Shown here one piece after another: positions 13,190 to 58,029 of a stretch of DNA of 64,000 nt. The stretch spans positions 2,976,001 to 3,040,000 of the forward strand of contig JAYWIR010000012.1 in assembly GCA_036172245.1 (NCBI GenBank). The letters run 5' to 3'. A program made the translations under genes and the position numbers. Every line of letters starts with the position of its first letter. Positions within the stretch are counted from its first letter, which is position 1. The notes below the pieces were generated by a model, which had not been told where the DNA came from, searched no databases, and saw only the letters and a program-made list of their open reading frames with translations. The DNA comes from Raillietiella orientalis (Eukaryota).

Positions 13190-16100
13190 GCAAATGAAGC
13201 CACGTTGCTGCCGTCCTCATGACGGATGCTTCTATGCTGGTGGCCTCTCGTCGCCGCAAACTTGCTTCTAGCACGTGGCGGAATGTCTCTATGGCTCGGA
13301 TGCAACCGATTGTTCTCATCACCCGCGTCCGTCTTGAGCCCGTTTCCGATGAAGAAGCGTCGCAGCAAGTCTTTAGCAGTGCCTTGAGGTAGACGGAGCG
13401 CCGAAGCAAGTCTCTACCACAAGTCTCCGAGGGCACTGCAGACCAACAGGAGGTGCGGGAGTGATTTCATCTCCCACACCTGGAACAGTTCGGGGAAGCA
13501 GCTCCCCGGAAACCAGGTATCTGAGCTGATTGCACTGGAATCCACAGTGCAGAAACAGCAGGACATCCGGTTTACAGCACGACGGAATATGAAAGTGTCC
13601 ACACCGGGGAGAAACCGCGAGTTCTTCGGGAGGCATTCCAAATTCACACCACCGAAGGAGCCCCTTTGCCTGGAAACGGCGAGTGGCGCCATCCACCAAC
13701 GCGCTCGCATTGCAGCCGTCCAAGAGTTTTTCCACTCCTGCAATGTTGCAGGAGCACTCCCACCCCGTTGCAGTTGACTACTGTCATTGCTTGCCCTGAG
13801 GCAGACAGCGCTGCGGCAAGGGGTGTGACGGGTATCCGGGACCACCGTGTCCAATGCAATGTCACATGCTCGAGGAGTGAGAGCGATTTTTCTCTCTTTT
13901 TACTCCATAAGGGGAAGGAGGAAGAATGGAGAAAGAGAAGAGGAGGAGGTGGAAGGCAGGAATGCGGGAAGAAGAAGGAAAGAGGAGAAGGAAGGGAGAA
14001 GAAGAGAGAAGGGAGAGGAGGAGGAGACGAGGTAGAAAAGAAGAGGAAGAGAAGGAGGAAGAGTGGACTGTCCATTCCTCCCGAAACACGCACGCGAGAG
14101 AGCAAGGGAAAGACCACAACTCCGGAGAGGACATCAGAGTAGCGAACGAGACACTCGATGGCCCTCCACCCGAGCAAGGAGTACGCCGCGCGAAGCACAG
14201 GAGGTATCCCCGGGCTACTCCCAGGATTACGGAAAAGCGCCGATCCGCATGAAACTTCTCTTCCAGCTCCGGAGCACTGGCAAACTCTTCTTTTCGTTCT
14301 CTCCCTCCCCCTTCACAACCTCCCCCTCTGAGTCCCTCCTGCGATTTCCCTGGAGCCTTACAGGTTTCTTCCCTGTTTTAGAGCACAAGACAAGGGACAC
14401 GGGGAGCCACAAAGGAGGAGGGTACGGGGGGAAGGGAAAAAAGGAGCAGCTAGAACCACTCCAGAAGAAAGTCTCTCGCTCTCCCGGCAGGCGGTGCCTC
14501 TCACGAATGGGGAGCGGGCACGGGAGCGCCAAGAGCAGGTGCATGCTCTCCTGGCATGCCGGAAGACAAGGGGGAGGCAGAAAAGGACGACTAAAGCAGG
14601 GAGGATGGTGAAAAAGGGAAACAAAGGGACGGAAGCGTGAGGAAGAGGCTGGGATCATGGGAGCAGCCATCTTTCACCTCCCTCCTCCAAAAACGAAGGA
14701 AAACGGGAGAGCGGAGGCGACGATAGGGAAGTTCTGCGAGAGGAAGAGATGAAGGAAGGAGAGAGCAATCAAATTCCTGGACTGGAAAAAAACACACACA
14801 CACTCGCTGATTAGAAATCCTTTTTTTCCCTCTCTCTCTTAGGAGAGAACCTCTGATGATGAAGAGGGAGGACGCGTGATCCGCAACTGCTGTCGTTCAC
14901 CCCATTCGAAAAGGAGATGGCAAAAGCAAGAGGGATGGGCAAGGAGAGGGACGTGGGTAGGCGAGCAAGAGGCTAGAAAGAAGCAAGAAAGGGAGGGAAA
15001 AGAGACAAAAAAAGGGCGCAAATAGGCAGGAATGGAAGCAAGGAGGGTCCTTCTCCTCCTATGGAAGAGGAGGAGCAGCTCGCGCAAGACGCTCTCTGCT
15101 CCTGAGCTTAAAGTTTCTGTCCCTCTCAGGAGGAGGAAAAGATGGGGTAGAGCAAGAAGGAGGGGTTCCATAGGTGGATCCAGAATCAGGGTTGGTCCTG
15201 GCTCCTTCCCTTTGCATCGAAACCACTCCTCACCACTTCGAACCTTCTCCTCCTGCCCTGTTCAGGATGAAAGAGACTTGACCACTGCGAAAGCATCGGG
15301 GCTGTAAGACCTCAAAATGCTGGTCACGACAGTGCGCCAACATTTATGAGCGGTTTCGCAAGGTCGGGTCGCCTCGACCTTGGAAAGTTCCCTTGCAAGG
15401 AGCATCTCTTGTCTCTGCATCAAGAGGCAAAGGGCTCTTTGAGGAAACGACCACAGTCACTTACTGTTCTAATTCATGTCTCCTTCCCCATCCCATTCTC
15501 TGCCTTTTTTCTTCACGGAAATCAAGAAAAGGAAGGGTGGGAGATCAATGCTCTTTAAGGTCACCTACTTATCTCGCGTAAATCCGTTGGCAACGTGGAG
15601 TTAAGTCGAGCTAAGTGGGACGGCAATGCATGCACCTAAGTAGCCTCATATGTGCCCTCAACAACTCCAGAGCACCACTTCTGGTCTCAAAGAGAAACTG
15701 TGATGAAAGGAATGCAGAATGCATGTCTTCCACCTCGTAGAAGCAGCACCAGGAAGTCTGGATCATCGGCATGCCTTTGGAAGAGGGGTAGTGTTTACCT
15801 CTTTGGTGAAGTTGTCTCTCCCACAGACTTTCGCAGAATGTCTCTGCCGTCTGCCACCGTCCAGGCTCCTCAGCTGCGGCAGTGCCACTGGTGGCACTTG
15901 TTTTCTGTGAGGAGATTTAAGGAATCAGGTTTCAGAGGGCGAGCCCGTCTCCAGGCAAAATTAGCTTGCGAGTCTCGCTGCCACTTCACTCATGTGGCTC
16001 TCCCGTACATATTGCATGGTATCGTCCCTCCTCCTTCCCTCCCCCTTCCCTTCCTTCTTTCCCTCCTCCCTTTCTCCTCCATTCCTCCCTCCTCTTCCTT

Positions 16101-17347
16101 TCCTCCTTCTCCTCCCTTCCTTCCTTCCTGCACCATGGAAATGGTGCAGAAAGAGAGAAAACTCAGAAATAGCAAAGTATGACATTGGCAGATTAGTTAG
16201 CACACCCAAACTCTTGCAGCATCTTTCATCCTCCTCTTTCTGTACCGATGCACCTTCATCTTTCTGGTATATTCGGTTAGAACCGCCCTGTGGCATCTCA
16301 AAGTTCACTCTGAGCCTCTTGGGCATGAAAAGCTCTAGAGTGATGAGGCAATGAATGCCCCAGTGTTGCTGCAGAATAATCTCTGGATCCCTTGACTCAC
16401 CAAGGACTTCAATGCTTGACGGAAAGAGACAGTGGAAACCTGGATATCCAGTTTCAAAGTCACCTCAGAAGAATTTGCCTCTTCAAGGGAATGCCCTGGA
16501 AAATGCTGCTGTTGTAGGAATCCAGCAAGTGGTCCAGATTGGCCGCCACGCCCTGCAGAGCCTCCTGCCCTCAGCACAAGTAACAGTAGCCCACCGTCGA
16601 TGGGAGGGTTCCCCTGCATCACTGTGGATCAGAAAGCTCCTATATGACTGGAAAACGAGTTGGCTGTCGATGCCGCCACACCACGCTTTCGGTCCCAGGT
16701 TCGATGGAAAGAATCCTTGGAGTGCCCTTGCAGGACAGGTGGTCCCTGCCCTTCTCCCCCTCAAGCGGCGGCACCAAATGGTGCTTATCCGGAATTGGGA
16801 CTTCCAGCGAGAAGTGCTCCCCGCACTTGGTTTCCGGAGGAACTGCATCTCCTAACTGTTCTAGCTGAGGGGCGATCGAATCATTCCCTCGCGCACCTGT
16901 TGCTGGACTGCGGCGTCCTCTGGAAACTGTGGTGGAGACTGCGGAGGACGCGGCTGGAGACTGCGGCTGCATCGCTTTTTCGCACGCGACGAACTATCGC
17001 GCGGAGAGGTGTTCTCCGCGTAGGGTTGGGTGCGCGCCATCTCGGCGACCCGGGTCTCTCCGGAGCTACACTCGCAGTGGCGGAGAGCCACACGCCGTCT
17101 TCATGAGGAGTGCAGAGCGAGGAGGGTGCTACCGTCCTCCATCAAGAAGTCTCCAGGGAGCTCACTCACATCTCAGGAAGACCGCAGAGAAGAAGGAACG
17201 TATCTTGTTTTTCTTGTCTCCTCTCTTTCGCTCGAAACTTTCTGCTTGTCCAGCCTGCGTTCCTTTGCTTCCCTCGGGATTTCGGCTCCCGGGTTTTTGT
17301 AGGCTAATTTTCAGAGGAAATAAACGCTCTGGGGTATGACCGGGAGA
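13190..17347 (+). mobile_element. Degenerate non-LTR copy with ORF1, endonuclease remnant and C-terminal CCHC, but no recognisable RT core
   Basis: Decayed Cys/His knuckles at about 13730-13870; purine-rich tract; endonuclease-like segment at about 15300-15950; PNCSS*GAIES/LAHLLLDCGVLWKLWWRL (about 16850-16940) parallels PSCKRCGEVETLPHLLLDCGSLQGLWRRL; terminus aataaacgctctggggtatgaccgggaga (about 17319-17347). Confidence 0.7.
13910..15080 (+). repeat. Interrupted GA-rich (polypurine) low-complexity tracts
   Basis: Runs such as gaagaagagagaagggagaggaggaggagac. Mirror CT-rich tracts occur at 16025-16130, 31270-31340, 32860-32930 and 34390-34530. Confidence 0.85.
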
Positions 17348-28049: not shown

Positions 28050-29210
28050 TCAGAGGCATTTCCACCTCGAACTGGACAGCATCTGCCTCAAGGTCTTCCT
28101 GTACTGGCAGTTCATGAGGCAGTAGAATATGAAGTTCACGGCGCTGTTGATCAGCGCGAGGATATCGAGGACTTCATCGAACGGCCTCACGCACTCGACA
28201 TAGAACGTCTCGTCGTAGAAAGCGCTCAGCAGCGACAGGATTCCCTGCGGGACCTCGGTAACCAGGAACATCAAGAGCAGCGCCAGTAGCAGCGCGTTCG
28301 TCCTGTCCGCCACCTTTTTGCGGATGGTGCTCTTCCGGAACTGGAAGGCGCTCTCTCTGTTGCAGTGGACGTAAAGGTTTTCCCTCCTGTTCCGGGAGGA
28401 ACACACCGTCCTCACGAGGAAGAAGACGAGTACGGAGAGGAGAACGCAGGGAAACAGCTTCACCAGGATGCCATAGATCCAGAAGTGTATGATCTTGATG
28501 ATTCCGTCCTCGCTGATGCCGCTGACTCGGAATCCCCTCAGGTCATGAACCTCTTCTATGTGCAGAGACAGGTACACCGGGAGGCAGAGTATGGGAGACA
28601 GGCAGTAGACGCAGGCGATGGCGCGGCAAGCCTTCTTCTTTGTGAACCAGGAAAGGTTCTTGGGGTGGAAGCGGATGTACAGGAACCTCCATATGGCGAG
28701 CGCCACGGTCATGTAGATGGAGATGGTGTGGAAGGTCTGGCCGAAGATGGCGTGGAAGAGGACAAACATGGCCCACGTGTACGAGTGCTTCTCGACCTTC
28801 CCTCTGTCGAAAAGGAGGTACTCGTGCAGACTGTAAGGGATGTATTCGAGGAGGACCAGAAAGTCAGCCACCGCCAGGGCGCTGAGTATGGTGCTCGTCG
28901 GGGAGCGCATTTGCTTCTGCATCAGGATGACCATATTGGCCAGGTTGCTGAGCAGCCCGAACAGACAAACGGACAGGCTGGCATAGCCGTAGCGCTTCCG
29001 GATCGCCGCCTGGATGTGAGCCAGGGAGTCGCCGCAGAAGACGGGTTCATCGCTCCGGAGATACTCGAGGCAGATTCCGCTTTGCAGCATCTCCGAGGAG
29101 GACCAGTTGCCCTCGCTTATCATCCGGTGGCAGTACTCGAAGTACTTTTGTTGAAAGTCCCTCCACTTGTCCACATGAAAGTCGGCGAACGATCTGTTCG
29201 ACTCGTCCAT
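28050..29210 (-). CDS. Intronless class A peptide GPCR, myosuppressin-receptor (DmsR/dmsr)-like, about 386 aa
   Basis: Uninterrupted ORF (first ATG 29210, TGA 28050-28052) with seven hydrophobic segments: TM1 GYASLSVCLFGLLSNLANMVIL, MRSPT, TM2 LAVADFLVLLEYIP, TM3 FHTISIYMTVALAIWRF (WRY-type DRY variant typical of this family), TM6 FLVTEVPQGIL, TM7 DILALINSAVNFIFYCLM. Third codon positions are strongly G/C. Confidence 0.92.
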   Translation of the reverse strand: MDESNRSFADFHVDKWRDFQQKYFEYCHRMISEGNWSSSEMLQSGICLEYLRSDEPVFCGDSLAHIQAAIRKRYGYASLSVCLFGLLSNLANMVILMQKQMRSPTSTILSALAVADFLVLLEYIPYSLHEYLLFDRGKVEKHSYTWAMFVLFHAIFGQTFHTISIYMTVALAIWRFLYIRFHPKNLSWFTKKKACRAIACVYCLSPILCLPVYLSLHIEEVHDLRGFRVSGISEDGIIKIIHFWIYGILVKLFPCVLLSVLVFFLVRTVCSSRNRRENLYVHCNRESAFQFRKSTIRKKVADRTNALLLALLLMFLVTEVPQGILSLLSAFYDETFYVECVRPFDEVLDILALINSAVNFIFYCLMNCQYRKTLRQMLSSSRWKCL

Positions 29211-29449
29211 CCTCGCCCCACTTCTTCCTCCGGTCGGCGCGAGGCGAGGAGCGTCCACGGAAGCTCTTCCTGTCCGCCTCCTCTCCTGAAGTGACGACTT
29301 CCGGGATTCTCGTCACGGAGGTTACCTCCCCGCTCATGCCATTCTGGAATTAGAAGGGAAGATGAAACATTTCGCCTTCCCTCCCTGATTCGCTGCTGTC
29401 GCCATGGAAGCGTCAGTTTGGCCGGAAAGAGTGGTTCGCTCAACCCGCT

Positions 29450-32400
29450 ACCATTCGCGCGAGCTGCACCCTCTGACCGCCTCGAGGGCGGTCAGAGGGT
29501 GCAGAAGGAGGGAAGGGGAAAGAGAGGAGCAGAAAAGGAGGTCTTTGATGAGGTGAGAGGGGTAGCACCGCCATTCCAATCTCGTCGGCTGCTGCTGGTG
29601 CCTAGAGGGCTCTGGTCGGTGTAATGGATGTCTGCCTAGATACGCATCGATTTCCTACCGACTGGTCCCTCGACCCATAGGGATGAATGTGTGAATCCGA
29701 CCCCTCGTCGCTGGAAGCAGAGGCGGTAGGTGGAAGCACGCCCTTAGCATCTGAAATCCTCCGCCTCCACGCACTCGACCTCAAGAGGCCTCCGCGGGTT
29801 GAACTGGAAAATTGAAATGAACAATGGAAATTTCCAGACTGCACGCGGGTCAGCTTTGTCTGTTAAGTGGATGGACAAAGTGCATAGAATGGATGTTTCC
29901 TGTTCTGGTGGGCAGGACTGGAATGTTTCCACTGATGGCGATGGCCCAATATCCGACACGGCCGGAATATTCACCAGGCGCGCTCTCTGGGAAACCCTCA
30001 ACATCACTACGCACGGACCCAGGTGGCCGAGTCTCCAGGTGACTGAGACCGACCTTTAGCGCCGCGCAACCCAGGAATGGTGAGCAGCTCCTTTCCACCA
30101 TTCCCGGGAGGAAGTTAGAGGACTCGAAGCTCGGAAGTGGGTTACACGACGGACCCCTATCTCTCGCTGTGAAAGAGACCTCCCTCCAAGAGCGACGAGG
30201 AAGCCGTCGGAGGTTGCGGGAAAAATCCGTTCTTCGCCCCTGGCATTTGACGGACAGCCTATCACTTTGTGAGAGATTCCCTCGAGGCAATCTCTCTCCG
30301 AATGGCGCTTGCAGCCTCGTCGACACCCCCTCCATCCCCGACTCAGGTGACCGAGGTCTCATACTTGAACCTCTCCATTCTTTATGAAATGAAGATTTCA
30401 GCGACTCAGGGCGGAGGGGGGCGGGCAACTCCTGTCGACTTGTTCACGATCTTCTAGAGGTGCGAAGGAGAAGATGAATCGAAAGACGCTAAATTTCCTC
30501 TCCCTTCCGTCCCCTCCTCCTCTTTGAAGGTACCACTCTGAGATAATTCAGCCGCGGTCGATTCCCCCAGTCCCGGACCTCCCCACCTGCTCTCTGGAAG
30601 AGCGATTTTCAGGACCGGCACCTGAGCGAAAATCCACAAAGACATCCGTCTTGGAGCGGCGGCACGCGTGCGAGCTTTTCCGCACGGGAGCGCGCTTTTT
30701 GCTGCGGTCGTGGAACGACCAATCAGCGTTCCTGCCGATCACATTTCCAGTCCCTGGAATTCTCATCGCTCTTTAATTCCCTCTTCCGGTACCTCTTTCC
30801 CCTCATTGAGCGCCTCTTTCTTAGCGTTCCTGTCGGTTTTCCCGAAAACCAGTTTAGGCGTGTCTTTGTGAGCGAATGTTAAAAACACCAACTGCTGCTC
30901 CGTAGCGAAGTCATGAATAATTAATGGAAGGTAATCCCTCAGGCTTCTCATGAGTGACGGACCCATGCAATTAGGATCCTCGTTTTGCTCAGTCTGCAAG
31001 AAAGGGACCCGGGAAGAATGAGGTTTTGCCTCCCGGATCCCAGGGTCGCTGGTGCGCGTGCGCGCTCCCGCGTTCGCCGAGCTCCTAGAACCGCGAAGAT
31101 GGTGTCGTTTTCCCCCCACCGGAAGTGCTTCCGCCCCTCTTCCCCCGGAGTACCGATGGCGTCCCGCGCCCTCCCGACCATCGAGGCCGCCCAGAATCAT
31201 GACCAGAACAGGGGAAGTTTCTACCCTCTTTGCTTTTCCCACACTCTCTTGAGGGAGCGGGGTCCCCTGCTCCTCCCTTCCTCCCTTCTTCCTCCTCCTC
31301 TCTTTCTCCTTCTCTACCCTTCCTACCCATTCCTTCTTTGTGCCTTTCCTTGGGACCACCCTGGAAACCTTTCGGACGTGGAGCCACCTGAGGGTCGGAA
31401 CGGAACAAAGAAGTTCCCCTCTCCCTCCCCCCGTTTCCTCTCCTGCGGGAGTAAGGCTTCCCTCGTGTGTGGGAACCTTGTCCACTGAATTACTGACTGG
31501 CACGCCATCCCCGAATACATCTCTCCGCTCTTCTCGTCTTGTAGAAGTTTTATTTTTTCCTTCCACCTCTCCTGCCTCCTCTCCCGAAATTTCGATGGCG
31601 GCCAATCTGCTCACACCCCACGCTGCTCGCCTCCTTCACAAGTGAGGGGCGTGGACGAGGAAGGACTGCTGCCAGGAAGAAAAAGGGGAAGATCTTCTCT
31701 TTGTTTCCGTCCACACACGCCATTCGGGTGCATCCGAGAGAGGAAGGAAAAGGGAGGGGGGTAGAAGGACGTCCCTGTGATACGTCCAGGACTCGGAATT
31801 CCCCCACGAGTTTTCTGGTCTCCGGTTCGGATATTCTCCTTGACGACGACGATGGCGCGCGGTACGCGACAAGACCAGGTAATGGTCAGCGTGCTTCGAG
31901 CGGGAAGCAGAGAGAACGAAGCGGAACGAGCAGAGGGAGACGTTGCTGACGGTGGCCTAAGGGCAGTGTGACGGAAATAAAGGGAAAGGGGAAAGCCGGC
32001 AAAACGGAAGAGGTTTTCGGCCTGCGAGGCTGCCCGGGAATCTCGCGCGAACAAGACCAGCAGTTCGTCCGACGGCGCCGGAGCGCGAGGACGACCGCTG
32101 GTCGGGCACCGCGCCGCCGTGGAGGGGGAGCTCTCTGCCGCACCCTGACCGGGAGACAATACTCAGCCCCGAGGCGGCTTCCTTCTCAGTCCAACGACCC
32201 CTCGAGACGATGCATGCCCAGACTCTTCCTCCGAGCACGGCGAATCCTGAGAGAACGTCCTGTAAATTTTCGCGCGACCTCAGGCTTGCCGGGCAGCACA
32301 CCTCAGGGTGCTTTCCAAGCGCCCAAGGGAAGAAACCACGAGCTCCCGCGTGGCCTGCAGGTGGCTCATCTTCCGCGCGGGCCCGGAAGGAAGAAATTCC

Positions 32401-35400
32401 GGTGCCTTTTGGCTCGGAGGATGAGAGGCCTTCCAAGCTGCGAAGTGCCTCCGAGCAGTGCGTCCGCTCTGCATGCATGGTGAAGATTAAGGACTCCCTT
32501 GGGACTTCAAGAATTTTTTTTTATGTATACGCATTGGTTCCCCCATTTCTGGATAGCGACCACACAGCTGGATCGGAATCTAGAGACACCCCTGGAGCCG
32601 CCCTCCCTCTGAGGACCCTTTAGAGGTGACCAACGCCACCCTTTCCTCCCTTGTGGAAAAGTCTGCAGGAGAACGACCTCAGGATCGATTCTCACTAACC
32701 TCAAGGGTTCCCTCTCACAACACCCGTGCGACTTCCTGGGTAGTCTGCCTCTTCTCTTCTGGGGCAGGCGTACGCGCCGCTACTAGTGGACATCCACTCT
32801 CCCTTCGGGGTGTCTCGAACTTCCAGAAAAGTCAAAGAACGTCTTCCGACGGAGGATGTTCTTCGTCTCCCCCCTCCTTCCTCCTTTTCTCTTCCTCCTC
32901 TTCCTTTCTCCCTTCCCTGCTCTTTCATGCTCCCCATCCTAATCGGAGACCGTCAGACCAATCACCCGTGGGGACCACTGTGGCCCCAATGATCGGCAGG
33001 ATCGCAAGAGACGATCTTTTTCTCCGCCAAGGGGCTTGAAGAGGAGGTCATCTGGATGAGGGTGACCACGCTGCTGGGTTCGCGGACGCCTATCAGGTGA
33101 TGCTCCCAACACTGGTGGTCCCCAGCCTTAAGGATCTCTTGCGCAGACGATGGACCTTCGTCCTCTTTTTAGGCTCCCTTTCAAACCCGGGGCTGCAGGC
33201 GGTCGCTGACGGACTTTGTGGGCGCAGCCCCCGGATTGTCTCCTCCCCTCTCCTTCTCATTCTCGGAAGGGCTGTAGAACCTTAGCTTTAGCCGCGCCTG
33301 TATCGAGAGCTGGTGGCATCCGGAGGAGAGTTCTGGACCCTCCTGCCGGCTCGCGCTGCGAGGAACGGACGGAAAGACGGCTGCGATTGGACGACGGCCC
33401 GCGCGACTGCGTGATGGTGCCGGCGCCCTCCCGCGCAATCAGAGAGGAGCGCGGAGGAATCAATCAGGGTTGGGAGGATTTGATTGAGGAATCCCCGGGG
33501 CGACCTCGGACCGGTGTCCCTGAGGTCCTCACTGACAACGGGAAGCGGGATAATTGATGACTCCTTCTCCTCCTCCCCCTCTGGGGAGTTAAACGACCTG
33601 CAGAAATCTTTCCGGAAGCCACCGAGCAGCGAGCAGGCGCGGTGGGGAACACGGGAGGGAGTGCAGCGATCCGCGACAGCATCCGGAGCCGGAGGAGCCG
33701 AGGCTGAAGACTGCCGAGAGGGTAGACGCAAGGGACGCGCACGAGTGTCGGTGATGGGAACTTGGAATGACGGGAGAGGAAGAGGGGGGAGGGAGGGAAG
33801 AGCCACTACCAGGCGAGGAGGAGCAGCGCGGGATGGCTGCGGTGCTTCCCTTTTTGCCGGAGTACCGCCGCTCCACCCTGAGGTGGTGAAACGAAAACGC
33901 CGAGGCATCTTCGAGCTCCAGGTCGTCGCACAGGAAGATAAAGAAAAGCTCCTGGGGATCCTTGGCCGCAACATGATCGGGGGAGGGGGGAAGAGGGGAT
34001 CACGGATTCGTGGGTCTTTTCTCCTACCTCTGAGGCTGGCGCACGAGCATTGGAGTCGAGAGAGGGCGGCGCAGGTCACCTGCCACAGGAGGACCCACCA
34101 CGGAACCAAGGTTTGAGTTCGCCTCATCCTTGGAAAAGCCGATTCGATGAAAACGCCGTCCCAGATCTTTTTCTGGGGCTCGGAGGGGTCCTCCTCGATA
34201 CAGAGGAGGGGGCAGGGAAGGAAAGCGACTTGGAAAAGAAGCGTCGCTGTGAAACCTGTTTTCCCCTGTCGCCGCTAGCACGCCGCGAGCCTCTGATTCG
34301 TCCAGGAGCTCCCGGTATCTGGAATGTCTCCCAGGTTCGAACCGGAAGCGCTGCTTCCGCAGGAAGGGATCCACGAATGGAAAAAGTCATTTCTCCCCTT
34401 CCTCCTTCACCTCCCTCCTCCTCCTTTCTTCTTCCTCTTCCTCCCCTTCCCTTCCTCTTTTCCTCCCTTCCCTCTTCTCTTTTCTTTCTCCTCCTCTTCC
34501 CTTCCTACTCATTCCTTCTCTTTGCCTTTCCTTGGGACCACCCTGGAAATCTTCGGACATAGCACCACCTGGAAATCGGAACAAAGCATCCGCGTTTCGC
34601 CCCGCGGAAGACGAAAAATCCACTAGAGTGAGGGGGAGGGGGTGCCGCGAGACCCCCAGAGAAGTCTCTCCTTCTTCTCCCCTCCCGCGCGTCTTCCTCG
34701 ATTGAGGGAGTTCACTCACCCTGCCGGCTGGCCACCGCCGTTTCCGTTCCGCGGGAGGACAACGCTGCGTCTGGGAGGGTTGGTATCTTTCCACTTCCTC
34801 CGGGAAGACTGCTCCCGGGATACGGATGGGGTGCGCCCCTATCCCCGATTCGACTCTTCCAAGGGCAGCCCTGAGCTTGGATCCGTGAAGACTGCACTTG
34901 CCTTCCTCTCCCCCTTCAATTCTCTTTCGTGTGCCTCACCCTGATCAAAAGCCATCAGTCCGATCCCCCGAGAGACATCGATGTGATGCCAAGATCATCC
35001 GGACCGCGAGAGGCGATTCCGAGGGGGCAGAAACGACGAAGGACGCCTGAGCTCAGCTCCCTCGCCGACCGCTCGGCCCCATTTCCTCTGGCCCTCCCGC
35101 CCCCGCGTGCGCGCGAACCGGAATCCTCCGATTCCGAAAAAGGCGGTAAGGGGTCACGTGCGCGCGAAGTGAAAGAGGAGACAGAGGGTGGAGGATGTCT
35201 CTCGCTTGCGTGAGACCTCGTCATGCTCGTCTCCTGGGCGGGACCCCTCACCAGGAATCGTGCGGATCACAGGAAGGCTCGAGGAGGAAGAGTAGGGAAG
35301 TGGATGGTGAGAGGAAAGGTGACAACCGTCGAACTCGTCCCGTGGACGGGCGCTTCGCTCCTCCGGTCCGCCTCCTCCCCGGACTCTCCCGGATTCGTGA

Positions 35401-46750: not shown

Positions 46751-46989
46751 TTCATTTTTGGAGCTGGTTACGATGACAACAGAACCGGTAGCCGTTCAGG
46801 ATGCATCCAGTGAATTGCATGGCACTAGAAAGCACGTGCACCGTGTTGTCAGGTGTGTTGGGACTGTTCCATGCCACATTTCTTCGGACACTTGTATTGT
46901 CAAGTAGTTTGTACATGCTGACATTGCAAATGCAGATGGATAAGATCCCAAACAAGTTGTCCATGCATTAAGATTCCTTCGCAGAACAA

Positions 46990-48160
46990 ATGCTGAAATC
47001 GTTGTGCAAGGGTACAAATGTATTTAAGTTGTTTGTGCTACTCTCTCCGCTGTTATTGTGGTATTTTATGAGAAATATAACCGTGCTAGAAAGAACTGTA
47101 AGGCATAAAGTCAATTTAAAAGACATATTAATAACGGCCGTCAATGCTGCCATGGATGGAGGACTCGAAGTTGTTGCAGTAAGAAGAACAGCTCAACTGT
47201 TGGAACAATCTAAGGGTAAAACTAAAGAAGGCATTAAAGACCCTGTTACTGCCGGCGATATTCGTTCACATCTTATAATGATGGATTATTTTAAAAAGAG
47301 GTTTCCCAACTTGCATGTATATATAACACGATCGAGTCTCAGTGAAATAGCCTTTCATTTTAGATCGTTTCAGAAGAAAGTAGTGTGGAGTCCATGTTAA
47401 AGAATCTCACCATAGAGTCACGCGAAATAATCTACGAAAACATAAATGTACAAGATGAACTAGTCTTTTCCGATGATATACTGATTTGGATTGATCCACT
47501 TGATGCAACAAAAGAATACACTGGTGAATACAAATCATGCTAACGTGGAATATGAATTATTCTAGAAAGACTGGATACATATGTAACAGTTATGGCATGT
47601 GTAACACTAAAAGGATTGCCCATTATGGGTGTGATCTACAAACCATTTGAGGAAGATCTGTATTGGGTCTGGGTTGGCAAAAACATGTCTGATAGCATTC
47701 ACAACCTCAGGGTGAGCATGACATATCAGATAAGCCATAATTCTTGCAGAGACTTAAGAGCAGATCGAATAATACAGTTATTACCTCCCGTTCTCATAAA
47801 GGGAAAGTAAATGAACTTGTGAATTCAACTTTTGGAAAGCAGTGGAAAATTATAAGTGCTGGTGGTGCAGGTATTTGCGTTTGAAGTTTGTGCAGTGAAT
47901 TCATGCTAGATTATAAAGGATACAAAGTGCTGCAGTTATTGTCCAAACAAGCTAATGTTTACATTCATACTACACTGATCAAAAAGTGGGACATCTGTGC
48001 AGGACATGCGCTTTTAATGGCTAATGGAGGGCAAATGACTACCCTGTCTGGCCAACAAATTACCTATGGATCACCCTTCAGATCAGAATTACATGATGGT
48101 TTATTGGCCACAATGGAAAATCATGAATGGTTTTTAAGAAAGTTGAAAACACATTCTTAG
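46990..48160 (+). CDS. IMPAD1: Golgi-resident PAP 3'-phosphatase (IMPAD1/BPNT2/gPAPP), 5 exons, 331 aa
   Basis: Exons 46990-47316, 47364-47523, 47566-47711, 47750-47870, 47919-48160 with GT-AG introns of 47, 42, 38 and 48 nt give one frame. It has an N-terminal TM anchor and the motifs SKGKTKEG..DPVT, IVSEE, WIDPLDATKEYT, SRSH, AGGAGYK and IKKWDICAG. Confidence 0.95.
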
Positions 48161-48290
48161 TGCTATCATTACAAGTGAGGAATACACATATAACTTTAAC
48201 ATTAACACAGAGATCATTGAGGTCATTAAGTGTTGACCTTTGTGTATTGTATTGCTTTGTATATACGGGGGAATGTAATTAGACAGTTAA

Positions 48291-49844
48291 TCACAAATGA
48301 TAATTATATAAACAACTGTTATTGTTACTTGATCCAGCAATACCAGATTGCAGTTTAACTACATTCCAGTAGGGATGGAGATTTTTCCCTGAATATTTAC
48401 GTGACAAACCAAGTTTTAAATTGTGCCTAGGTTTCAAGGAATGAGCATCTGATGCCAAATCAGGCACACCTAACCTGAATACTTTCTGTGGAGTAGATTT
48501 CGTTTTATGGACTGGAAACTCTGAGCATGTACTGCTATATAGTTCCAATCCTACATCTTCCATCGAGAATTCTTGTTTGTTATCAGCAGGTACTTCTTGG
48601 TCATCTTTCAATGAATGATGACACAAGGAAAACGTAGTTTGAATGCAAGCATCAGCTGAGGAGGGCTTTGAGAAAATTAAATTCCAATCCTCGACTAAAG
48701 GATCTTGAGAGTTGACTGCCTCGGTCAGATCAAATCCTTGGCTGCAGCAAGGACTTTCAATTTCACAGAAATTTTCTATGCATTCAGATGTTTCAGTTGT
48801 GTAATTCGTTAGATGCAGTTCACAAATATTGTGTGCGCACTGAATATCAAAATGCTCGTGTTTGCCATTTGAGCTGGAAACAAAACTGCTTGACTGCTGT
48901 TCTTCTGTCTCCATATGTGTGTAATTCAAACATAAATACTGATGTGGTAATTTAGATTCACATAGGGGACAAAAAAATTCATGATGACTTATGCATGCAA
49001 CTTCAGCAATGCTGAACATGCAAACAGAATAAGAATCTGATGTGGTCATTGCAATGCAGTCATTCTGCATTGCTTTATTGTAATATATACTCAACTGAGA
49101 TAGATCAAGGGAAACATCTGATAAAAGAATTACTCGATAAACTTGTCGTAGTTGATCAGCAGATGAGCAAAATTTTCTCAGTGTTATTAAACAGTTTTTC
49201 CAAATACACTTGCAATAACCTTTCCAAAAACATGGTAATGATTTTTGCTGTAGTCGTGATCTTGTGAATGTTAATTTTTTCCACATCATGCAAATGAGCT
49301 GATTAATAACATGCCCCCAACCACAACACAAACAAATCATGCAGAAATGATGTAGTGCAACGACAGTAGAAAGTTGTGTCACTGAGATCAGTTTCAAAGT
49401 ACGACGGATGTTACAAAGACTTCCATGTAATTCCTCAATGACTAACAAGTAGCATGTTTCTGACAGGAAAACAAACTGTATGACAGTAATTAAAGCAAGG
49501 AACAATATGAGGAAATACATTTAAAAAGTACCTTTAGAAAAACAGTACTCCATAAACCAAGCTTCAGTAAATTTTGATCAGCAAACAAAGACATATCAAA
49601 GAATAAAGAGTCAGAGGATAAAATATGATCTACAGAATAAAAAACCAGAAGCAATCCAGTAAAATAAAAGCTTACGTGGAAATCCAGATATTAGCTTCTT
49701 GTCTTCACATGAACTACTTGCTAGATGGCATAGAGGAGAAGAAAGAACTGGTAACACAGGCAAAGGAAATGTCGGATTCTGATAAATATATTCCCTTATT
49801 GCATTCAAAAGTGATTCTAGATCAACTTTATAGGTATATTTCAT
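48291..49844 (-). CDS. Uncharacterised Cys-rich protein (about 483 aa) with a C-terminal RAD51-interacting-like motif
   Basis: Predicted exons 49844-49676, 49629-49532 and 49475-48291 are joined by GT-AG introns of 46 and 56 nt into a single open frame. A 1185-nt stop-free exon in AT-rich DNA is unlikely by chance. C-terminal LKLGLSRKYSGKNLHPY resembles the RAD51AP1/RAD51AP2 motif (R[IL]GLSR..R[IV]K.LHP). Confidence 0.7.
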
Positions 49845-49896
49845 GTTGACTGGAAAGAAAAGCAATTCACAATTCAAAATTGCAACATGAATAGAC

Positions 49897-52800
49897 TCAA
49901 TCTAAAGGCAAGGTATGCAATTCCGAAATTACAGATCTGCAATCTAATTGACCATATGTTATCAAAATTTCTAAAAAAGTTGGGATATTCTTGATCTCCA
50001 CAGGAACATCTCGAAGCAGACTACAGTGAAATAAATGGATGAATTGACAGAAATGTCATCTACCTGCTGCTTCTTATGATAAAACCTTTCAGGTATTGCA
50101 TAAAGTAGAATAACATCTGCGTAGCAACACAATTTCGAAATTGTTGCAAAGTGACAACGACACCTGCAGTCAGAGTCATTCCATCTACATGTTCTGTCAA
50201 TTTTGATATCCCTAATTCATTTACATTTCAATAAATGACTTCACTGAAGTCTGATTACCACTTGAATGGGCCCAACGTATTTTAGCCATCTGCAATATCA
50301 GCAGCAAAAATAAGAAGATAGACAAATGTGGCAGTTCAGGTGTGATGATGTAGATCTTCAGTATTGAATCCCATAGACCTACACTTTCTGAATAATCATT
50401 TAATTCTGAAAGCATTTGATTCTCTGGAATCAGTGATGATTCTTGCATATGCCTGGGTGCCTCAAACAAAACTGCACTACAATCCACATTGTTAACTATT
50501 CCTTTAAAAAGCATCTCATACTTATTTAAAGTTCGAACACTCCGAACTAATTCTTGAGATTCACAAGAACTTTGAAGCTGCAATTCTAGGGACAGATGAT
50601 GATTCAGGAGCTGCAGCTGCCCTATGCGTGCAATGTGCTTTAGAAAAATTGAAGATAATTTTCGCATTTTATTGGAGGGACCATTACATAATCGATCTGT
50701 GTGATATCATGAAATACATGTAAATATCTCAGTTAACTTACCAGGAATGACGAGATTATCCAAATCCCTAGATAAGGCAGATAAATGATCAATCAAAAAG
50801 CAATCCTGAAGGGCAGTCTGCAAAAATATCACTAAAGACTGAAATACAGCAGAGTTGATAAAATTTAGAAAAATGGAATTAAACTCAAGCAAACAGCTTA
50901 TAAGACGGAAATGAAAAACTGTAATAATAACAGTCCATAACTTTCCAATGATGACTGACAAGAGTAATAATCAACTGCTGAAGCTCAAAAGCAAGCAATT
51001 ACTTGTTTTTAAATTTCCTACCGACAATTTAAAGTTAATTTTCACTGGAAAAGCACTGACAGATGTACTGCACCTGTAATGAGCCAACTCTGATTGTTGC
51101 TTTCATTTGTGACTCCACACAATTAAGTGAAAGCAAACTGAAAGCATGTAAGAAATATTCCAAAGTATTGTAATCCTATAAAATGTTTCTTCTCTGACTC
51201 ATATGAGCAATGCATTGATAATGGAATGTTTTTGTCAAATTCATTGAAATCAAGGCACGTAATGATATAAACATAATAAATGAAAATGCATGACTGTGAA
51301 AGTTTTAGCTTTCAGGTAAAGGAATGAATAACTTGGTATCAATATCCTTTGCAAAACATCTGAATATTCCAAATCATCAGACAACTTCAATCTCTAGTAT
51401 GCCAAATTCAAAACAAGAAACACAAAACCATTTTAGCACAGTCCGAGATAATGAATTATATGATGTATAGTGACTATTCATCAATTTTTTCTCCAGTAAT
51501 ATTTCATGAAATAACTACGACTAAAAAGATTTTGTAAAACATTCAAACCAGGGTACATTTCTTCAAAAAATAAAAATGCTCGTGTATAAGCTCTGATCAA
51601 TAGTAGTATTACAAAAATAAAATGATTACATGCAATTATCAGATATCAGAAAATGCCTACAAAAATAACTGAGTAAGGGAAAACTTTCACGTATTCAACT
51701 TCCTTACCACCATCAGATGTCAACAGCAATTAGAAAAGCCATAAAAACCTAGCAAACCTTAGAGGTCTGACCTCATCAAAGTATTTTGTAAAGGGTTTAA
51801 AAAAAAAAACAGTCCCACTAATGCTTACATTATCAGCAAATGAGTTTATTAGATAATATTTTTTGGTGATGAGAATGATATCATCTTGCCAAACCATTTA
51901 TTTATCATGAAATCAAAATTTGCAAATAAGCATTACTGCAACACATTTAAAACAGCTTTCCTAAGTATTTTGGTAATTAACAGCTTTTTCTTCACTTTGA
52001 AATTCAATTTTCCTTTATAATTTCTTAAATTAAAAAAGAATAAACAAATTTCATAAATAACTGTACATTGCAAATGCTGTGCTTTATATGGTTCAGATCG
52101 AGTAAAGAAGCAAATGGATCTCAATAACATGAACTTCTTTTAATCAAGCAATGTACTTCATAAATGTTACTGAACTTTGCATAGAAATGATGCTGATAAA
52201 AATTTTTTAATAGCCCTGTACAACACAATTCACATTCATGACCATTCTCCAAATACTTAGTTCTTCCGAAAATATTCAATACAATGGATGACAAATAGTG
52301 CCTTTCACCTGCAATTCCTTGACTAGCATGAATCCGAATAATTTATGAAGACCTTGTAAAATGCTGGGACCCAGACTTTCCCCAAGTTGTTTGAACACTA
52401 CTGAATGAAGAAGTTCTTCTTTGGTTACATGATCACACCAACAGCCTGCTAGCAGCACATGCATACTAAACCTATTTAATAAAAACTCTGGAATAAATAC
52501 ATTATTACCTGGCATCTGTGATTCGAAGAAATTCTGCAACCAAACGACCAACAAAACTTGCAGTTTGGCAAACCGTAGAAGGAAAGGTAGGAATGGGGAT
52601 ATCACAACTTTGGAAATTGCTAGGCCAATCTATTTACTTCATATAATAAGCTGAATATCTTTTGATAGCTCACGTTTATGACATCGATAGAAGTCACATT
52701 CTCGTTCCACATTACATTTCACAATTCTGGCTAATTCTTGCTGCCATAGTCTATGGCCAGATATTCCAAGATAATCTTGAATATATTCCAGTGAATGAGA

Positions 52801-55800
52801 AAAGCCTTTCATTTTCTGAGTTACCAGTTTTAGCTTAGAAATCAAATCTCCATGCTAGAAAACTTATTATTTGAAGCAACATATAGAGCAAGTAACCTTA
52901 TTTTTAGCATCAAAAATCAAAATGGTATTCAATGCAGACGAGACGTTTTGTACTAGCTCCTTTCGGATTCCATCTATGAGTAATTGTTTTGGATCTACCT
53001 GAACTATGCCCATCAGAGTAGTTTTCATTGATAAGACTCCTTGCATCAGAATAGATATATTATGGCTAAGGCGTGTAAGCTTACAGAAAAATAATGAAAA
53101 TATTATCTTCAAATTTTTACTTGGAATCTAGCATCTGATCGAGCAAATTCTTTAGGCAGACTTTTGCCTGCTTGGGATGGCAATTCACATAAAACACTGG
53201 TTTGCAAAACAATAATTTCTTGTAGCAAGCTGAACATGGAATGAGGTATAATATGTAGCACATGTTTTACGTAGCTAACAAGTTGCTCACTGTACAACTG
53301 AGACACAGAAACTAGATCAGAACTATGTGCTTGATTAATACGAAGTAGAGGAAGGTCCAATGCAGAGCTTAGCTACTTTCCAAAAAATAGAACATAATTT
53401 CAACTAAATACAAACCTTTAAAAAAATAGCACGTAACTGTCCTACTATTCCAGGATCTTTTTGAATGCATTGCTGCATGATTACAGTATAAGCATCAATG
53501 AGAATCCAGGCATAACTAAAATCTGATATAATTTGAAGAGCAATCAGCAGTTCCTCTTTCAAATCAATTAAATGCAATAACAACAATAGTTGAGTACGGC
53601 ATTCTTGTAAGAGTTGCTTTACTTGCAAATTTCCATCCAATTGATGAAAAACTGTTTCATTCTCATAGCAGCCAGTGCAATAATACACTTACTTTGTACT
53701 TCATTAAAAGCTTTCAACAGCTGTACAATCTTTTTACTGCTTGATATATCTTCCTGTAAACTTAAAGTATGAAGCTGCTCTCTAATCTGCTTGAACCACA
53801 TAGCCAAACTATCTGTGAAAGCATTAGTCACATAGCAATCACTTACTGGTTTTACCATTTTTTTCCAAAAGCGGAACAACAGTGCTACCTTCAAATAACT
53901 CAAAGAGATGAGTGACATGAGTAATGCTGCTCCTCTGAGCAGTATCCCAATATGAATTGCGGTCTTGAAGAAGATGTTTTAAAATATCTTTTAACTTTAA
54001 TTCTAATAATGCTGTGTTCAACAACAAAAGCAGCACTTTTGAAGGATCATGCAACAAATGAATCTGAACTTGTTCACATTGAGAACGACATTTTCTATTA
54101 TCAGCTGTGCCAAAGCTGTTCATATATGAATGCAACAGAATCCATCGTAGACAGATGTTACACTGACGTAATAAACTTAGCAGCTTTTGATGGTTTTTTA
54201 AAACTGTATTTTCACCTAGAGTACCTTCTGTCAACCAATGCTGAGTTTCTTCAGTCAAAATCTGAATACAAGCAATCACAAGTACATGAAAGACTTCACA
54301 AACTTTCAGCTGCTTCTGAAAATTATCTGCAAGAAAACGGATATTTTCTGAATCAACAGTGTTGAGAAGGGCTTGTCGAGCTGCCTGATATGGCTCCCAA
54401 ACATGAACTAAATTAACAGTCATGCCCATGTACACATTGATCACCTGAAATGTTTTTATTATTGATCAGAAAAACTTTTTATAACATACCCAATTATCTG
54501 GAAAATATTTATCTACAATTTCTCGCATCTTTGCTGTTTGATGATGCAGTACATTAGGATGAAAGTACAAACATACATACAACATGGATGCTTGTGTGCT
54601 TAAAGCAACACTACGATGGTCAGGACAAGGATATATATGTAACTGATGATAAATATCATCTGATCTTAAATGACCTATCACCATTTCCACCAGCATTTTA
54701 TTTACTGGTACTCTCCTAACAAAGATGCAAATTTCAGTATGCAAGAAATATGCAAGCACACTTACGCAAAATAATTTTCAGGATATGCTTGTGGATATCT
54801 ATTACTGACATTTGGGTTGAAACTAGTGGAACGAAACAATTTACACACTTCATCAAAATCACTGCACTTTTGTTTGCTGCTATATTTGTAGAAAGCTACT
54901 AGAAGTCTTTCCCGAATGGTTCCTTCTATCTTCCAATCTGTGAGAAGAAGCATAGTTCCATACAAGAACAGGATTTCACACTAAAATAAGGAAAAATGAT
55001 AGCAGATGGTATTATAGCCCTTCACATTTAAAAGCATCTTGAATTTACCAGCAACTGCTTGCCATCTTTATTAGCAAAGATGGATTCCAGAGACTCATGA
55101 ATGTACATGCCATTTTCCAAATCATTTACTATTCTATTTAAGTCCACAACATACTGGAAGATGCTCTCAAATATTAGATAAAAGCGATTTATGATTTCCA
55201 AATAATTTTCTCTTATTTCTTCATCAACAACCTGAAGAGCCTGAAACAAACCACTGCATAATTTATCTACACATAAAGATGAAATGCTACTTCAATGTTT
55301 CATCTCAAAATTCTTCTAGTTGCAGTTTAAGTTAAAAGCTGTCTGGGTGTGTGCAAGGTTCTAAGGTGTATTTGTTTCTCCTGAAAATGTCACATACTAA
55401 CATACCTCACTTTTTTCAACTTCTTTTTCATACACTTCTAGGTTTGTAAAATACGTGAAATCATGAACGATGCAGCCATATTTCTGTTGCAACTCCTTAT
55501 TGCTTAACCTAAGAGGAAACCGTTTTTGTAAGAAATTCAAGGAGTTTCTGGAGAATATTCATTAAAAAATTCAATAGTGAAGGAGTTTGGTAACAAAACT
55601 TATTGAAGACGAATCCGAGAATCTCCAAATTTGACACTTTAGAGATCACAGACTGCAATGAGATTGAAATGAAACCCAATGACCCGATGCTATTAGATGT
55701 TGCATAGGCCTAAATTGAAATATCCTTACTTTATCACTTCTGGTACGAAATCGCTTAATCTTTTCACTTCGGAAATTATAGCGTTCCCCCTTGCAGATAG

Positions 55801-55851
55801 ATGCAACAATTTCTGACCACATGGGTTTTTCTCAACAAAATTGTCGGTCAT
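49897..55851 (-). CDS. WASHC5: Strumpellin / WASH complex subunit 5, 18 exons, about 1155 aa
   Basis: Exons 55851-55730, 55508-55406, 55240-55049, 54980-54766, 54715-54490, 54444-54304, 54261-53856, 53812-53693, 53651-53416, 53372-53121, 53079-52897, 52854-52674, 52629-52509, 52471-52309, 50838-50742, 50696-50259, 50211-50064, 50020-49897 total 3468 nt in one frame, with all introns GT-AG. Family motifs: [77 protein letters not shown]. Confidence 0.96.
51713..51779 (-). ncRNA. Candidate intronic box C/D snoRNA
   Basis: Lies sense to WASHC5 in its only kilobase-scale intron: C-like TTGATGA (51779-51773), D box CTGA (51716-51713), and an adjacent 16-nt element TAATTGCTGTTGACAT. The C box is imperfect and the terminal stem is weak. 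Confidence 0.25.
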
Positions 55852-56570
55852 GACTTTGAAGAATCACTCGGCATACCAAAACCATCCCAAGGATTTTTCC
55901 CAAGCTCGAACTGAAACGGCATCGGCTAAGAATTTGTTCAGCTGAGGCAATTTTTTCAAATTAAAAATTCATCTTGCGTGAAGTTCCTGTGTTCGTAACT
56001 GTTAAGCATTACTAGCGTTTACTGTTTTGGAGCAAGTTTTACAAATCTAAACAAAACCATTACAAACCATTGGTTTAGTCACCCTGCATCGCCTTAGCTT
56101 TTGCTTTACTGTATCCAAAATGGAGTCCCCTAATTGTACGCGTCAGGTACTCAACTATACATTTCTTTGCATATAATACATATAAAGAGTACACATTTTT
56201 AAATTACCCATGATGAGCAGCCTCGAAGCTGCATATCACACTATTATCCAAGATAGATTTATCGCTTTCTGCAATAACATTCTCGTTAGTAGGAAAGCAG
56301 CTGTGCTGGCCGAGACTTCCTTCAAAAAGAACTTATTGAAAAAAAGATCCTGATTCCAGTGAAGGAATCATTTTCATTCCGTGCATACAATCCATTCGTA
56401 AAATGCAGTCGACTGCTTACATGCGTCCGGAAGCGGCCACCCTGGTTTGTTAGACCCTCAAGTACACTTCTGGGGCTCCCAAGTATATCGTGATACATCG
56501 TGGCCTAGATGATCGGATTAGAATCTGCAACACAGTCTGTAATGTTTCTATCAATCACAATTCCACGAGC

Positions 56571-56609: not shown

Positions 56610-58029
56610 TACACTTTTAGGATGATCTAAGATGACGGTGATAATGTTTCTAACTCTCATTTTTTTTCACGAGGTACACCTTATTCTTGGACCCTTGATT
56701 TTCAGCCTTGTTTCAACGGGGGTTCAAAATGCTCCACAATTTTAGCTAGTAGAATTTATTAAGGAGAAATGTGTGCGATCATAAGAGATTGACCATCAGA
56801 TTACAGATTATTACGAATGATGGCCATTTGCATTCAGTTTTTTTTTTTTTTTTTTGCATCCCATGATTGTTCAGTTTATGAATACATTCTCGAGGAGGCA
56901 TTTAAGTTGCCGAGGAAGCATGCCCTCATGCTAACAACGTAACCCCCATTGAAATGTAAATGAATCAGGGATATCAAAATTAACCAACTTTTCACTGAAT
57001 CTTGTCGGGGTCATGCATTTCAAAAGCCTGAAGACTATGAAGATAGAAAAGAGCTAAAATTCTGTGTTGAAATTCTCACTTCTTTTCTACCTGCTATAAT
57101 TAGTAGCTTAAAACACTAATGGTTACACAAGTGTAGGTTGCCACTGAATGCGAGTGTGCTGGCAACGAGAATCTCGACAAAGTCCTAGGTTCTGGAACGT
57201 TACCTACGCTCCTCAATGTTCTGCTGGAAGCAGGTTTTGTGGTATGCTGGCCTCGGAAGTAGGGGACAGAAATCTTCAAGAATCTTCCCTCTCGTTTTCC
57301 ATGATTTCCCTTGGTTCTATTATAACTCTATCCGTTCATTTAGAAACGGCAACATCGAGTTTTTATCGCCTCATATCTTGTGGGTTATTTTGCAATGAAG
57401 GTGAGCAAAATTCAAGGGATCTCTACAGTGCGTTCAATCTTTGCAGTTTCTTTTGAAAATTCCTACAGGAAATTGGACAGCGGGATACACATGACTGAAT
57501 CCAAGGTTGTGAAACGAGATTTCACTCTTATTTACGCAGAAGGGAACACGATTTCGGTGTCACATGATTTTCTCGTCTATGAAATCTTCATACAAGGTAC
57601 TTACTTTCAGCTAAGCATGGAATATAAAATATTGCATATGAATACATAAATTTTTTCCGCTTGATGTTTCAGGTTCAATTCCAGTGTGCAGGCCCTTGAG
57701 TTCAACACACTGCTCCATCACATGCTTCATTGCTACAGAGAATGGAAATCTGGGGAATAGCTGAAACCGTTTTATCTAAAGAGTCTCCTGTGTACCATTC
57801 CTTACGCCTTTTTTGCTCTGGAAATAGTTCTCTTCTTTCATCTTTAACGACATAATGACATACTCTCATGAAGTGAGAGTGACAAGAGAAGCAAACATTG
57901 CTTCACTGGATTTATGTCTGTTCATTGATGGGATCATAAATGTTAATCTCGTAAAAATTGTTCTCCAAAAGCTTCTGAGCATATCAGCTACTTTCCACGC
58001 TATTAACTGCACTGAATTATACCGTAGGT

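Follow-up and report, generated by a model that had tools for sequence, protein, structure and literature searches.

Among the closest described counterparts of the gene arrangement considered here are the operons of tunicates, whose polycistronic precursors are resolved by trans-splicing of a spliced leader (SL). In Ciona, the cistrons of an operon are directly juxtaposed and 16 of 18 upstream cistrons carry no AATAAA, and in Oikopleura the operon spacers measure 23-30 nucleotides (nt) and the upstream cistrons are likewise without AATAAA (PMC1488885). An unpaired splice acceptor is stated to be the condition for trans-splicing in the same source (PMC1488885), and distance cut-offs of 60 and 84 nt have been used for tunicate operons (PMC7986045). 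A second kind of precedent comes from insects: the silkworm tricistronic mRNA uENF1-uENF2-PP has an intron immediately 3' of an upstream open reading frame (ORF), and leaky scanning is the mechanism demonstrated for stoned, Snapin and the silkworm mRNA, all of them polycistronic (PMC2978622). Here we consider two adjacent genes on the minus strand of a 64,000-nt window of Raillietiella orientalis DNA (assembly GCA_036172245.1, contig JAYWIR010000012.1, positions 2,976,001-3,040,000 of the forward strand); the window is the whole stretch analysed, and all positions below run from 1 to 64,000 within it. The stop codon of WASHC5, which encodes strumpellin, is followed after 52 nt by the ATG of a second gene, called gene 2 below, and the sequence leaves the pair a candidate two-gene transcription unit. 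Our leading account, which we hold tentatively as quite possible, is that the two genes are co-transcribed and that the 5' end of the gene 2 mRNA is made by splicing at 49850.

The anatomy of the junction can be read directly from the minus strand and agrees in sequence and coordinates with a preliminary description of this DNA: GAT (49902-49900), TGA (49899-49897), GTCTAT (49896-49891), a polypyrimidine-CAG running to the G at 49850, tcaac, and ATG (49844-49842). It comprises the following features:

49897..55851, minus strand: WASHC5/strumpellin coding region (ATG 55851, TGA 49899-49897), placed by Pfam PF10266, spliced alignment and the length of the C-terminus compared with orthologues
49845..49896, minus strand: spacer from the WASHC5 stop to the gene 2 ATG, 52 nt, T-rich, without a poly(A) hexamer, with one ATG (49888) opening a 4-codon ORF
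49891..49896, minus strand: GTCTAT directly 3' of the stop, a poor donor candidate (matrix score -1.3)
49850..49867, minus strand: polypyrimidine tract plus CAG, candidate acceptor, 12/15 pyrimidines, without a credible donor nearby

The GT..AG span within the spacer is a 47-nt stretch (49896-49850) that begins with GTCTAT and finishes in ttgcttttctttcCAG, the G being at 49850. It is 49% T, against 35% T for the same strand of the gene block, and contains neither AATAAA nor ATTAAA, as expected from the earlier account of a U-rich spacer devoid of AATAAA; none of 16 poly(A) hexamer variants occurs in 50020-49845. The WASHC5 stop is separated by 52 nt from the ATG of its co-oriented neighbour and by 47 nt from the acceptor, and both distances fall inside the 60- and 84-nt tunicate operon cut-offs (PMC7986045).

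Position matrices for donors and acceptors were built from the introns of the locus, 22 of which were collected from three genes. The 49850 acceptor scores 3.2, which places it at the 74th percentile of 474 AGs and mid-range among true acceptors. It is one of just seven YAG sites preceded by at least 12 pyrimidines in 15 within 7,901 nt of the minus strand (26 at a level of at least 11/15), which bears out the claim that a strong acceptor stands 5 nt before the second ATG. By arithmetic, such an acceptor would end within 10 nt of a given ATG by chance in about 1% of cases at the stricter level and 3% at the looser one. The only GT at intron distance, GTCTAT, scores -1.3 against 1.2 to 9.1 (leave-one-out) for the 22 true donors and lies at the 37th percentile of 456 GTs on the strand; it is of random-GT quality as a donor. 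With every one of the 22 true donors above that sole GT, the acceptor is in effect unpaired: it is good, has no local partner and, if used at all, would be joined to a distant donor or to a leader. The preliminary description had also stated that a +3 C, as in GTCTAT, was seen in none of 23 introns; this holds for the 22 donors collected here, while its count of 23 stands against 19 introns per WASHC5 model. Its remark that 47 nt is a typical intron size agrees with our data.

Among the 22 introns (46990-55851) two classes can be discerned, one of 37-50 nt (18/22), mostly without a pyrimidine tract, and one of 68-221 nt, which carries one. Since pyrimidine-rich acceptors go with the longer class, the 49850 acceptor is unlike those of the 37-50 nt class, and this was counted in favour of splicing from outside the spacer.

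The pattern of CpG across the pair is consistent with a single gene body. CpG versus GpC counts of 3 versus 8 (49741-50040) and 11 versus 14 (55681-55980), made by hand in the preliminary description, are exact. Within 300 nt on either side of the ATG, the CpG observed/expected ratio is 0.36 for gene 2, compared with 0.85 for WASHC5 and 0.82 for an IMPAD1-like gene that converges on gene 2; in the latter two genes the ratio drops to 0.1-0.4 in the gene body, and in gene 2 it is low throughout. A CpG-normal 5' patch is thus absent at gene 2 and present in its two neighbours, in line with the earlier statement that no separate promoter can be seen there. If CpG loss reflects germline gene-body methylation, as we infer from established invertebrate patterns, then the start of gene 2, being CpG-poor, would lie inside a gene body and not in an unmethylated promoter. 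Poly(A) signals are similarly sparse: the minus strand has no AATAAA or ATTAAA between 50404 and 49079, and the first AATAAA after the WASHC5 stop, 49079, lies within gene 2. The next element of interest lies downstream:

48100..48105, minus strand: first AATAAA beyond the gene 2 stop, candidate 3' end signal for both WASHC5 and gene 2, within the IMPAD1-like gene that converges on gene 2

Under the co-transcription account, transcription from the WASHC5 promoter would cross the 52-nt spacer and gene 2 and end near the AATAAA at 48105, and splicing at 49850, 5 nt ahead of the ATG, would provide the gene 2 mRNA with a separate 5' end. The sequence itself shows the anatomy, the weak local donor and the distribution of CpG and poly(A) signals; that the genes are co-transcribed, that the acceptor is used and that there is any leader is what we infer. 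The WASHC5 coding sequence (3,323 nt examined) contains 80 ATG triplets, so that translation of gene 2 would call for a separate 5' end; leaky scanning along a dicistronic mRNA was considered and is ruled out by this ATG count. The simplest route, which takes about two-thirds of the weight of the account, would be SL trans-splicing of a polycistronic precursor, leaving WASHC5 with a 3' untranslated region (UTR) of at most 47 nt without AAUAAA, as in Ciona and Oikopleura operons. Trans-splicing at 49850, taken by itself, is nevertheless somewhat unlikely. The other third goes to cis-splicing in which the donor belongs to a non-coding exon that the two genes share, upstream of the WASHC5 ATG, a route that we regard as quite improbable. 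The donors that might serve it are these:

55867..56082, minus strand: unused donor-like GTs upstream of the WASHC5 ATG, at 56082, 56067, 55876 and 55867 (3.3 to 5.8 by the donor matrix), which may mark a non-coding first exon common to both genes

The shared-exon route is favoured also by the acceptor-like sites that abut the other ATGs of the block (ttcttcaaAG+2 in WASHC5 and ttccttcgCAG+5 in the IMPAD1-like gene), 5'-UTR acceptors hard by the ATG seeming to be a local habit.

Overall, an operon reading is plausible and is somewhat strengthened by the unpaired acceptor, the continuity of CpG depletion and the ATG count.

Several considerations weigh against co-transcription with splicing at 49850. 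The locus was picked for its acceptor, so that the chance levels of 1% and 3% overstate the significance of finding one there. The acceptor also overlaps CCAGTC (49853-49848), which resembles an arthropod initiator, and may be a promoter element. An acceptor 5 nt before an ATG can, as the IMPAD1-like gene illustrates, accompany an ordinary 5'-UTR intron. The absence of a poly(A) hexamer carries little weight, since the 130 nt between gene 2 and its convergent neighbour are also without one. Exon 1 of gene 2 is by itself indistinguishable from a chance open frame. The shared-exon route needs an intron of about 6 kb over the whole gene, where the largest modelled intron is 832 nt. Rfam at gathering thresholds gave no match in the whole 64-kb window, and thus no SL RNA gene. 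The best protein matches are arthropod, at only 32-44% identity; the arthropods listed as trans-splicing are copepods and amphipods only, and operons were unreported there in 2021 (PMC7986045). Rotifers are known to trans-splice; the present lineage is not known to do so. Literature since 2019 on trans-splicing and operons in crustaceans yielded no operon report among the matches listed. Finally, lineages with trans-splicing have been linked with loss of gene-body methylation (PMC12460157), whereas the locus shows a gene-body-type CpG deficit. In the full picture, which appears unlikely, a Ciona-type SL-resolved operon in an arthropod-like animal with signatures of gene-body methylation would let the promoter of an endosomal housekeeping gene drive a fast-evolving factor that binds RAD51.

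The alternative that survives best is that WASHC5 and gene 2 are independent, overlapping tandem genes. A gene 2 promoter would then sit within the spacer or the final exons of WASHC5, with the pyrimidine-CAGTC as an initiator or a coincidence, and the WASHC5 3' UTR would overlap the start of gene 2. We consider this possible, though doubtful. It suits an extremely compact locus in which gene 2 and the convergent IMPAD1-like gene have stops 130 nt apart with no poly(A) hexamer between them, so that overlapping transcripts are already needed, and it gives a role to the initiator-like CCAGTC. It would also be in keeping with an arthropod-like lineage, where operons are unreported (PMC7986045) and internal promoters are common. 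However, the 5' end of gene 2 has no CpG-normal patch, which both other genes of the block possess, and a strong polypyrimidine acceptor would have to occur exactly here by chance, at the level of roughly 1-3% given above. The position of the start is awkward too: initiation at 49851 leaves a 5' UTR of 7 nt, and initiation further upstream puts the ATG at 49888 in the leader.

The identification of the upstream gene as WASHC5, proposed in the preliminary description, is confirmed by Pfam Strumpellin (PF10266), which was matched by all four tested exon ORFs (E from 5e-43 to 2e-06; profile positions 266-1041), and by orthologue-guided spliced alignment. A search for full-length strumpellins found eight proteins at E <= 1e-10 among 1,083 candidates, with identities of 37-44%; the named strumpellin matches, five of the eight, are four from ticks and one from a leafhopper. 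The gene was modelled with a protein-guided spliced aligner limited to GT-AG introns, with the orthologues P0001 and P0008 as guides. Guided by P0001, the alignment extends over 55845-49927 and takes in residues 1-1152 of the orthologue's 1168; that guided by P0008 ends at 50078. Each model has 19 GT-AG introns, 15 of which are the same in both, and the last intron (50063-50021) belongs to the P0001 model only. Between 52300 and 50700 on the minus strand the guides disagree, with other small exons and introns of 106-832 nt, about 40 residues being concerned. From the end of the alignment (49927) to the TGA there are nine codons, and the orthologues stop no more than a few residues away from the same point; because the alignment nearly reaches the TGA and the orthologues end there, TGA 49899-49897 is taken as the natural WASHC5 stop.

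An in-frame fusion of WASHC5 to gene 2 through the 49850 acceptor was examined and found to be without support, the orthologues ending where WASHC5 ends here. Four of 16 WASHC5 donors (53855, 53692, 52673 and 50258) are phase-compatible with such a fusion, close to the third expected by chance, and the last donor, 50063, is incompatible. No report was found in the literature on strumpellin together with dicistronic mRNA. A metagenome scan with a WASHC5 exon returned two loci at 33% identity on contigs of 2-5 kb, which are too remote and too short for a comparison of synteny.

Gene 2 was modelled as three exons:

49676..49844, minus strand: gene 2 exon 1, 56 codons plus 1 nt, ATG context caacATGa
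49630..49675, minus strand: gene 2 intron 1, 46 nt, GTAAGC...TGTAG, joining exons 1 and 2 in frame
49532..49629, minus strand: gene 2 exon 2, codon-usage score 12.8
49476..49531, minus strand: gene 2 intron 2, 56 nt, joining exon 3 in frame
48291..49475, minus strand: gene 2 exon 3, 394 codons (TGA 48293-48291), in a 409-codon open frame in 35% G+C DNA

A stop-free frame of 409 codons at 35% G+C is not due to chance. The exons were scored by codon usage trained on WASHC5, the null being stop-free windows of Markov-simulated sequence. Exon 2 scored 12.8 against a null of 1.9 +/- 5.0 (1.4% of null at or above), and exons 1 and 2 joined scored 22.8 against 6.5 +/- 8.7 (1.2%); exon 1 scored 8.9 against 3.2 +/- 6.6, and 19% of the null lay at or above it. 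The long frame, the joint score of the small exons and a good ATG context together sustain the claim that a real second gene adjoins WASHC5.

A different start for gene 2 would make the acceptor irrelevant. If translation began, for instance, at the ATG at 49520, which stands at the head of the long frame, exons 1 and 2 would be chance frames and the true gap would be about 377 nt. The score of exon 1 alone would allow this, chance would by arithmetic give the block about one stop-free stretch of 96 codons, and no homologue was found against which the N-terminus could be checked. Such a start is nonetheless improbable, decidedly so given the levels reached by exon 2 and by the joined exons and given that a 46-nt intron with a GTAAGC donor links exons 1 and 2 in frame. 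The ATG contexts also differ, caacATGa at 49844 being good compared with ttttaaATGt at 49520, and the hydrophobic residues after 49520 are what a T-rich intron end translates to. The three-exon model was therefore accepted, the two small exons being less secure.

A second, stronger pyrimidine-rich acceptor of gene 2 intron 2 lies at 49460; it is out of frame with the AAG|GTACTT donor and in frame with phase-1 donors within exon 2. Alternative splicing of intron 2 is possible.

Ribosomes are generally not expected to re-initiate once they have translated an ORF longer than 1,100 codons, which counts against the last and very improbable alternative. This is a true dicistronic mRNA, its 47-nt GT..AG spacer removed or not, from which gene 2 would be translated through internal entry or re-initiation, in the manner of dicistronic genes of insects. 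Although the spacer has the size of a typical intron (18/22 at 37-50 nt), its splicing would leave a stop-to-start gap of 5 nt, and insect precedents include stoned, Adh-Adhr and the recombination pair mei-217/mei-218 (PMC2978622, PMC6778797), the GTCTAT donor is outscored by each of the 22 true donors and stands at the 37th percentile among 456 GTs, and the 80 WASHC5 ATGs bar leaky scanning of the stoned, Snapin and silkworm type (PMC2978622). The 47-nt cis-intron was accordingly rejected on its donor score of -1.3, and the dicistronic mRNA with a 5-nt gap offered in the preliminary description was not sustained, given the weak donor and the ATG count.

The product of gene 2 appears to be an orphan. 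Exon 3 gave no family in Pfam at the default threshold, no homologue among 802 word-sharing candidates from a set of 5.8 billion proteins, none by phmmer against 1.84 billion representatives and nothing usable in both Atlas searches; the last 79 residues of the protein had no match among PDB sequences. A single-sequence AlphaFold model has a mean pLDDT (predicted local distance difference test score) of 32 and is unusable. With Pfam opened to E <= 10, a sole family emerged, PF15696, the RAD51-interacting motif, with E = 0.01 and a score of 16.5 bits, the cut-off being 25, over profile positions 14-38 of 39:

48369..48440, minus strand: RAD51-interacting-like motif (exon 3 residues 346-369), sub-threshold PF15696, with the core KLGLSRKYSGKNLHP at 48372-48416

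The tail carries K, L, L and H at n, n+3, n+12 and n+13, the spacing of R316, L319, L328 and H329 in RAD51AP1, with R replaced by K. In RAD51AP1, the substitutions R316A, L319Q, L328A and H329A weaken RAD51 binding, RAD51AP1 and RAD51AP2 have only this C-terminal motif in common, and RAD51AP2 is termed vertebrate-specific (PMC1636435). Gene 2 resembles these two in that a short basic motif sits towards the C-terminal end of a protein which is otherwise unrelated and little conserved; it differs from them in that its motif, at 16.5 bits, stays under the 25-bit cut-off and in that there is no further similarity. The earlier label of putative recombination factor is thus retained as far as a sub-threshold PF15696 motif with the key residues goes and does not extend to family membership. 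The case for a recombination factor by way of a putative RAD51-binding tail is weak but coherent, and an orphan, lineage-restricted protein with such a tail is a plausible description of gene 2.

The pair lies in a window that is a compositional mosaic. The region from 46.9 to 56 kb has 33-39% G+C and a CpG observed/expected ratio of about 0.3, and its flanks have 53-61% G+C and ratios of 0.7-1.0. The AT-rich, CpG-poor island (46900-56000) holds three closely packed intron-rich genes and looks like the result of long-term methylation decay of housekeeping gene bodies within a GC-rich genome. Pfam applied to 146 open frames of the flanks recognised three, namely one G-protein-coupled receptor (GPCR) frame and two exon frames of the IMPAD1-like gene:

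46990..48160, plus strand: IMPAD1-like inositol-phosphatase (inositol-monophosphatase) gene, from Pfam on its exon frames, converging on gene 2
28053..29312, minus strand: intronless GC-rich peptide GPCR of myosuppressin / dmsr-1 type (ATG 29210), the sole Pfam-recognised gene in 46 kb of GC-rich flank

The stops of the IMPAD1-like gene and gene 2 are separated by 48161-48290, in which neither strand carries AATAAA or ATTAAA. The nearest canonical poly(A) signals sit in the opposite gene (48105 and 48018 on the minus strand, 48676 on the plus strand), and the 3' UTRs of these two genes therefore probably overlap in antisense. The best matches of the GPCR are myosuppressin, dmsr-1 and sex-peptide-receptor-like proteins at 32-44% identity; among the 120 matches listed, 84 have an organism name, and all 84 are arthropod. 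Taken together, the GPCR and strumpellin matches indicate an arthropod-like lineage, ecdysozoan at the least, that has no close relative in the databases.

Short, imperfect TCC/GGA-rich polypurine/polypyrimidine tandem arrays occur in the GC-rich flanks (13980-14061, 16025-16127, 31266-31313 and 34393-34505). Upstream of WASHC5, a run of about 20 A on the minus strand (approximately 56838-56857) is possibly the tail of a retroposed element.

Should the gene 2 mRNA prove to be trans-spliced, operons would be extended to a lineage without reported ones, the first in that part of the animal tree, and an SL-resolved operon bearing signatures of gene-body methylation would run counter to the proposal that trans-splicing goes with loss of such methylation. 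The locus would then also be a clean test case, as a junction at 49849 would display the leader directly. If gene 2 instead has an internal promoter and an ordinary overlap with WASHC5, the pair only illustrates the compactness of the gene island. Either way, a plausible RAD51-binding tail outside vertebrates would bear on how broadly this motif is used.

Set beside known systems, the pair shares with the insect dicistronic and tricistronic mRNAs (stoned, Adh-Adhr, mei-217/mei-218 and the silkworm uENF1-uENF2-PP) an arthropod or arthropod-like setting, a short gap, a recombination factor (putative in the case of gene 2) as one partner and perhaps an intron directly 3' of the upstream ORF (PMC2978622, PMC6778797). 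Unlike these mRNAs, it has a long upstream ORF with 80 ATGs and a spacer donor of random-GT grade. The SL2-type operons of Caenorhabditis elegans likewise have genes in one orientation, separated by a short U-rich spacer, and an acceptor ahead of the downstream ATG. The C. elegans spacer is placed after an AAUAAA-directed 3' end. It measures about 100 nt (PMC1488885, PMC7986045), in contrast to the 47 nt from stop to acceptor found here, which are without AAUAAA. From the SL-resolved operons of Ciona intestinalis and Oikopleura dioica, the pair differs in that its lineage is arthropod-like and not tunicate, in its gene-body-type CpG deficit and in that Rfam found no SL RNA gene in the 64-kb window. 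It resembles them in having genes on the same strand less than 60-84 nt apart, an unpaired acceptor near the downstream ATG and an upstream gene without AATAAA (PMC1488885, PMC7986045).

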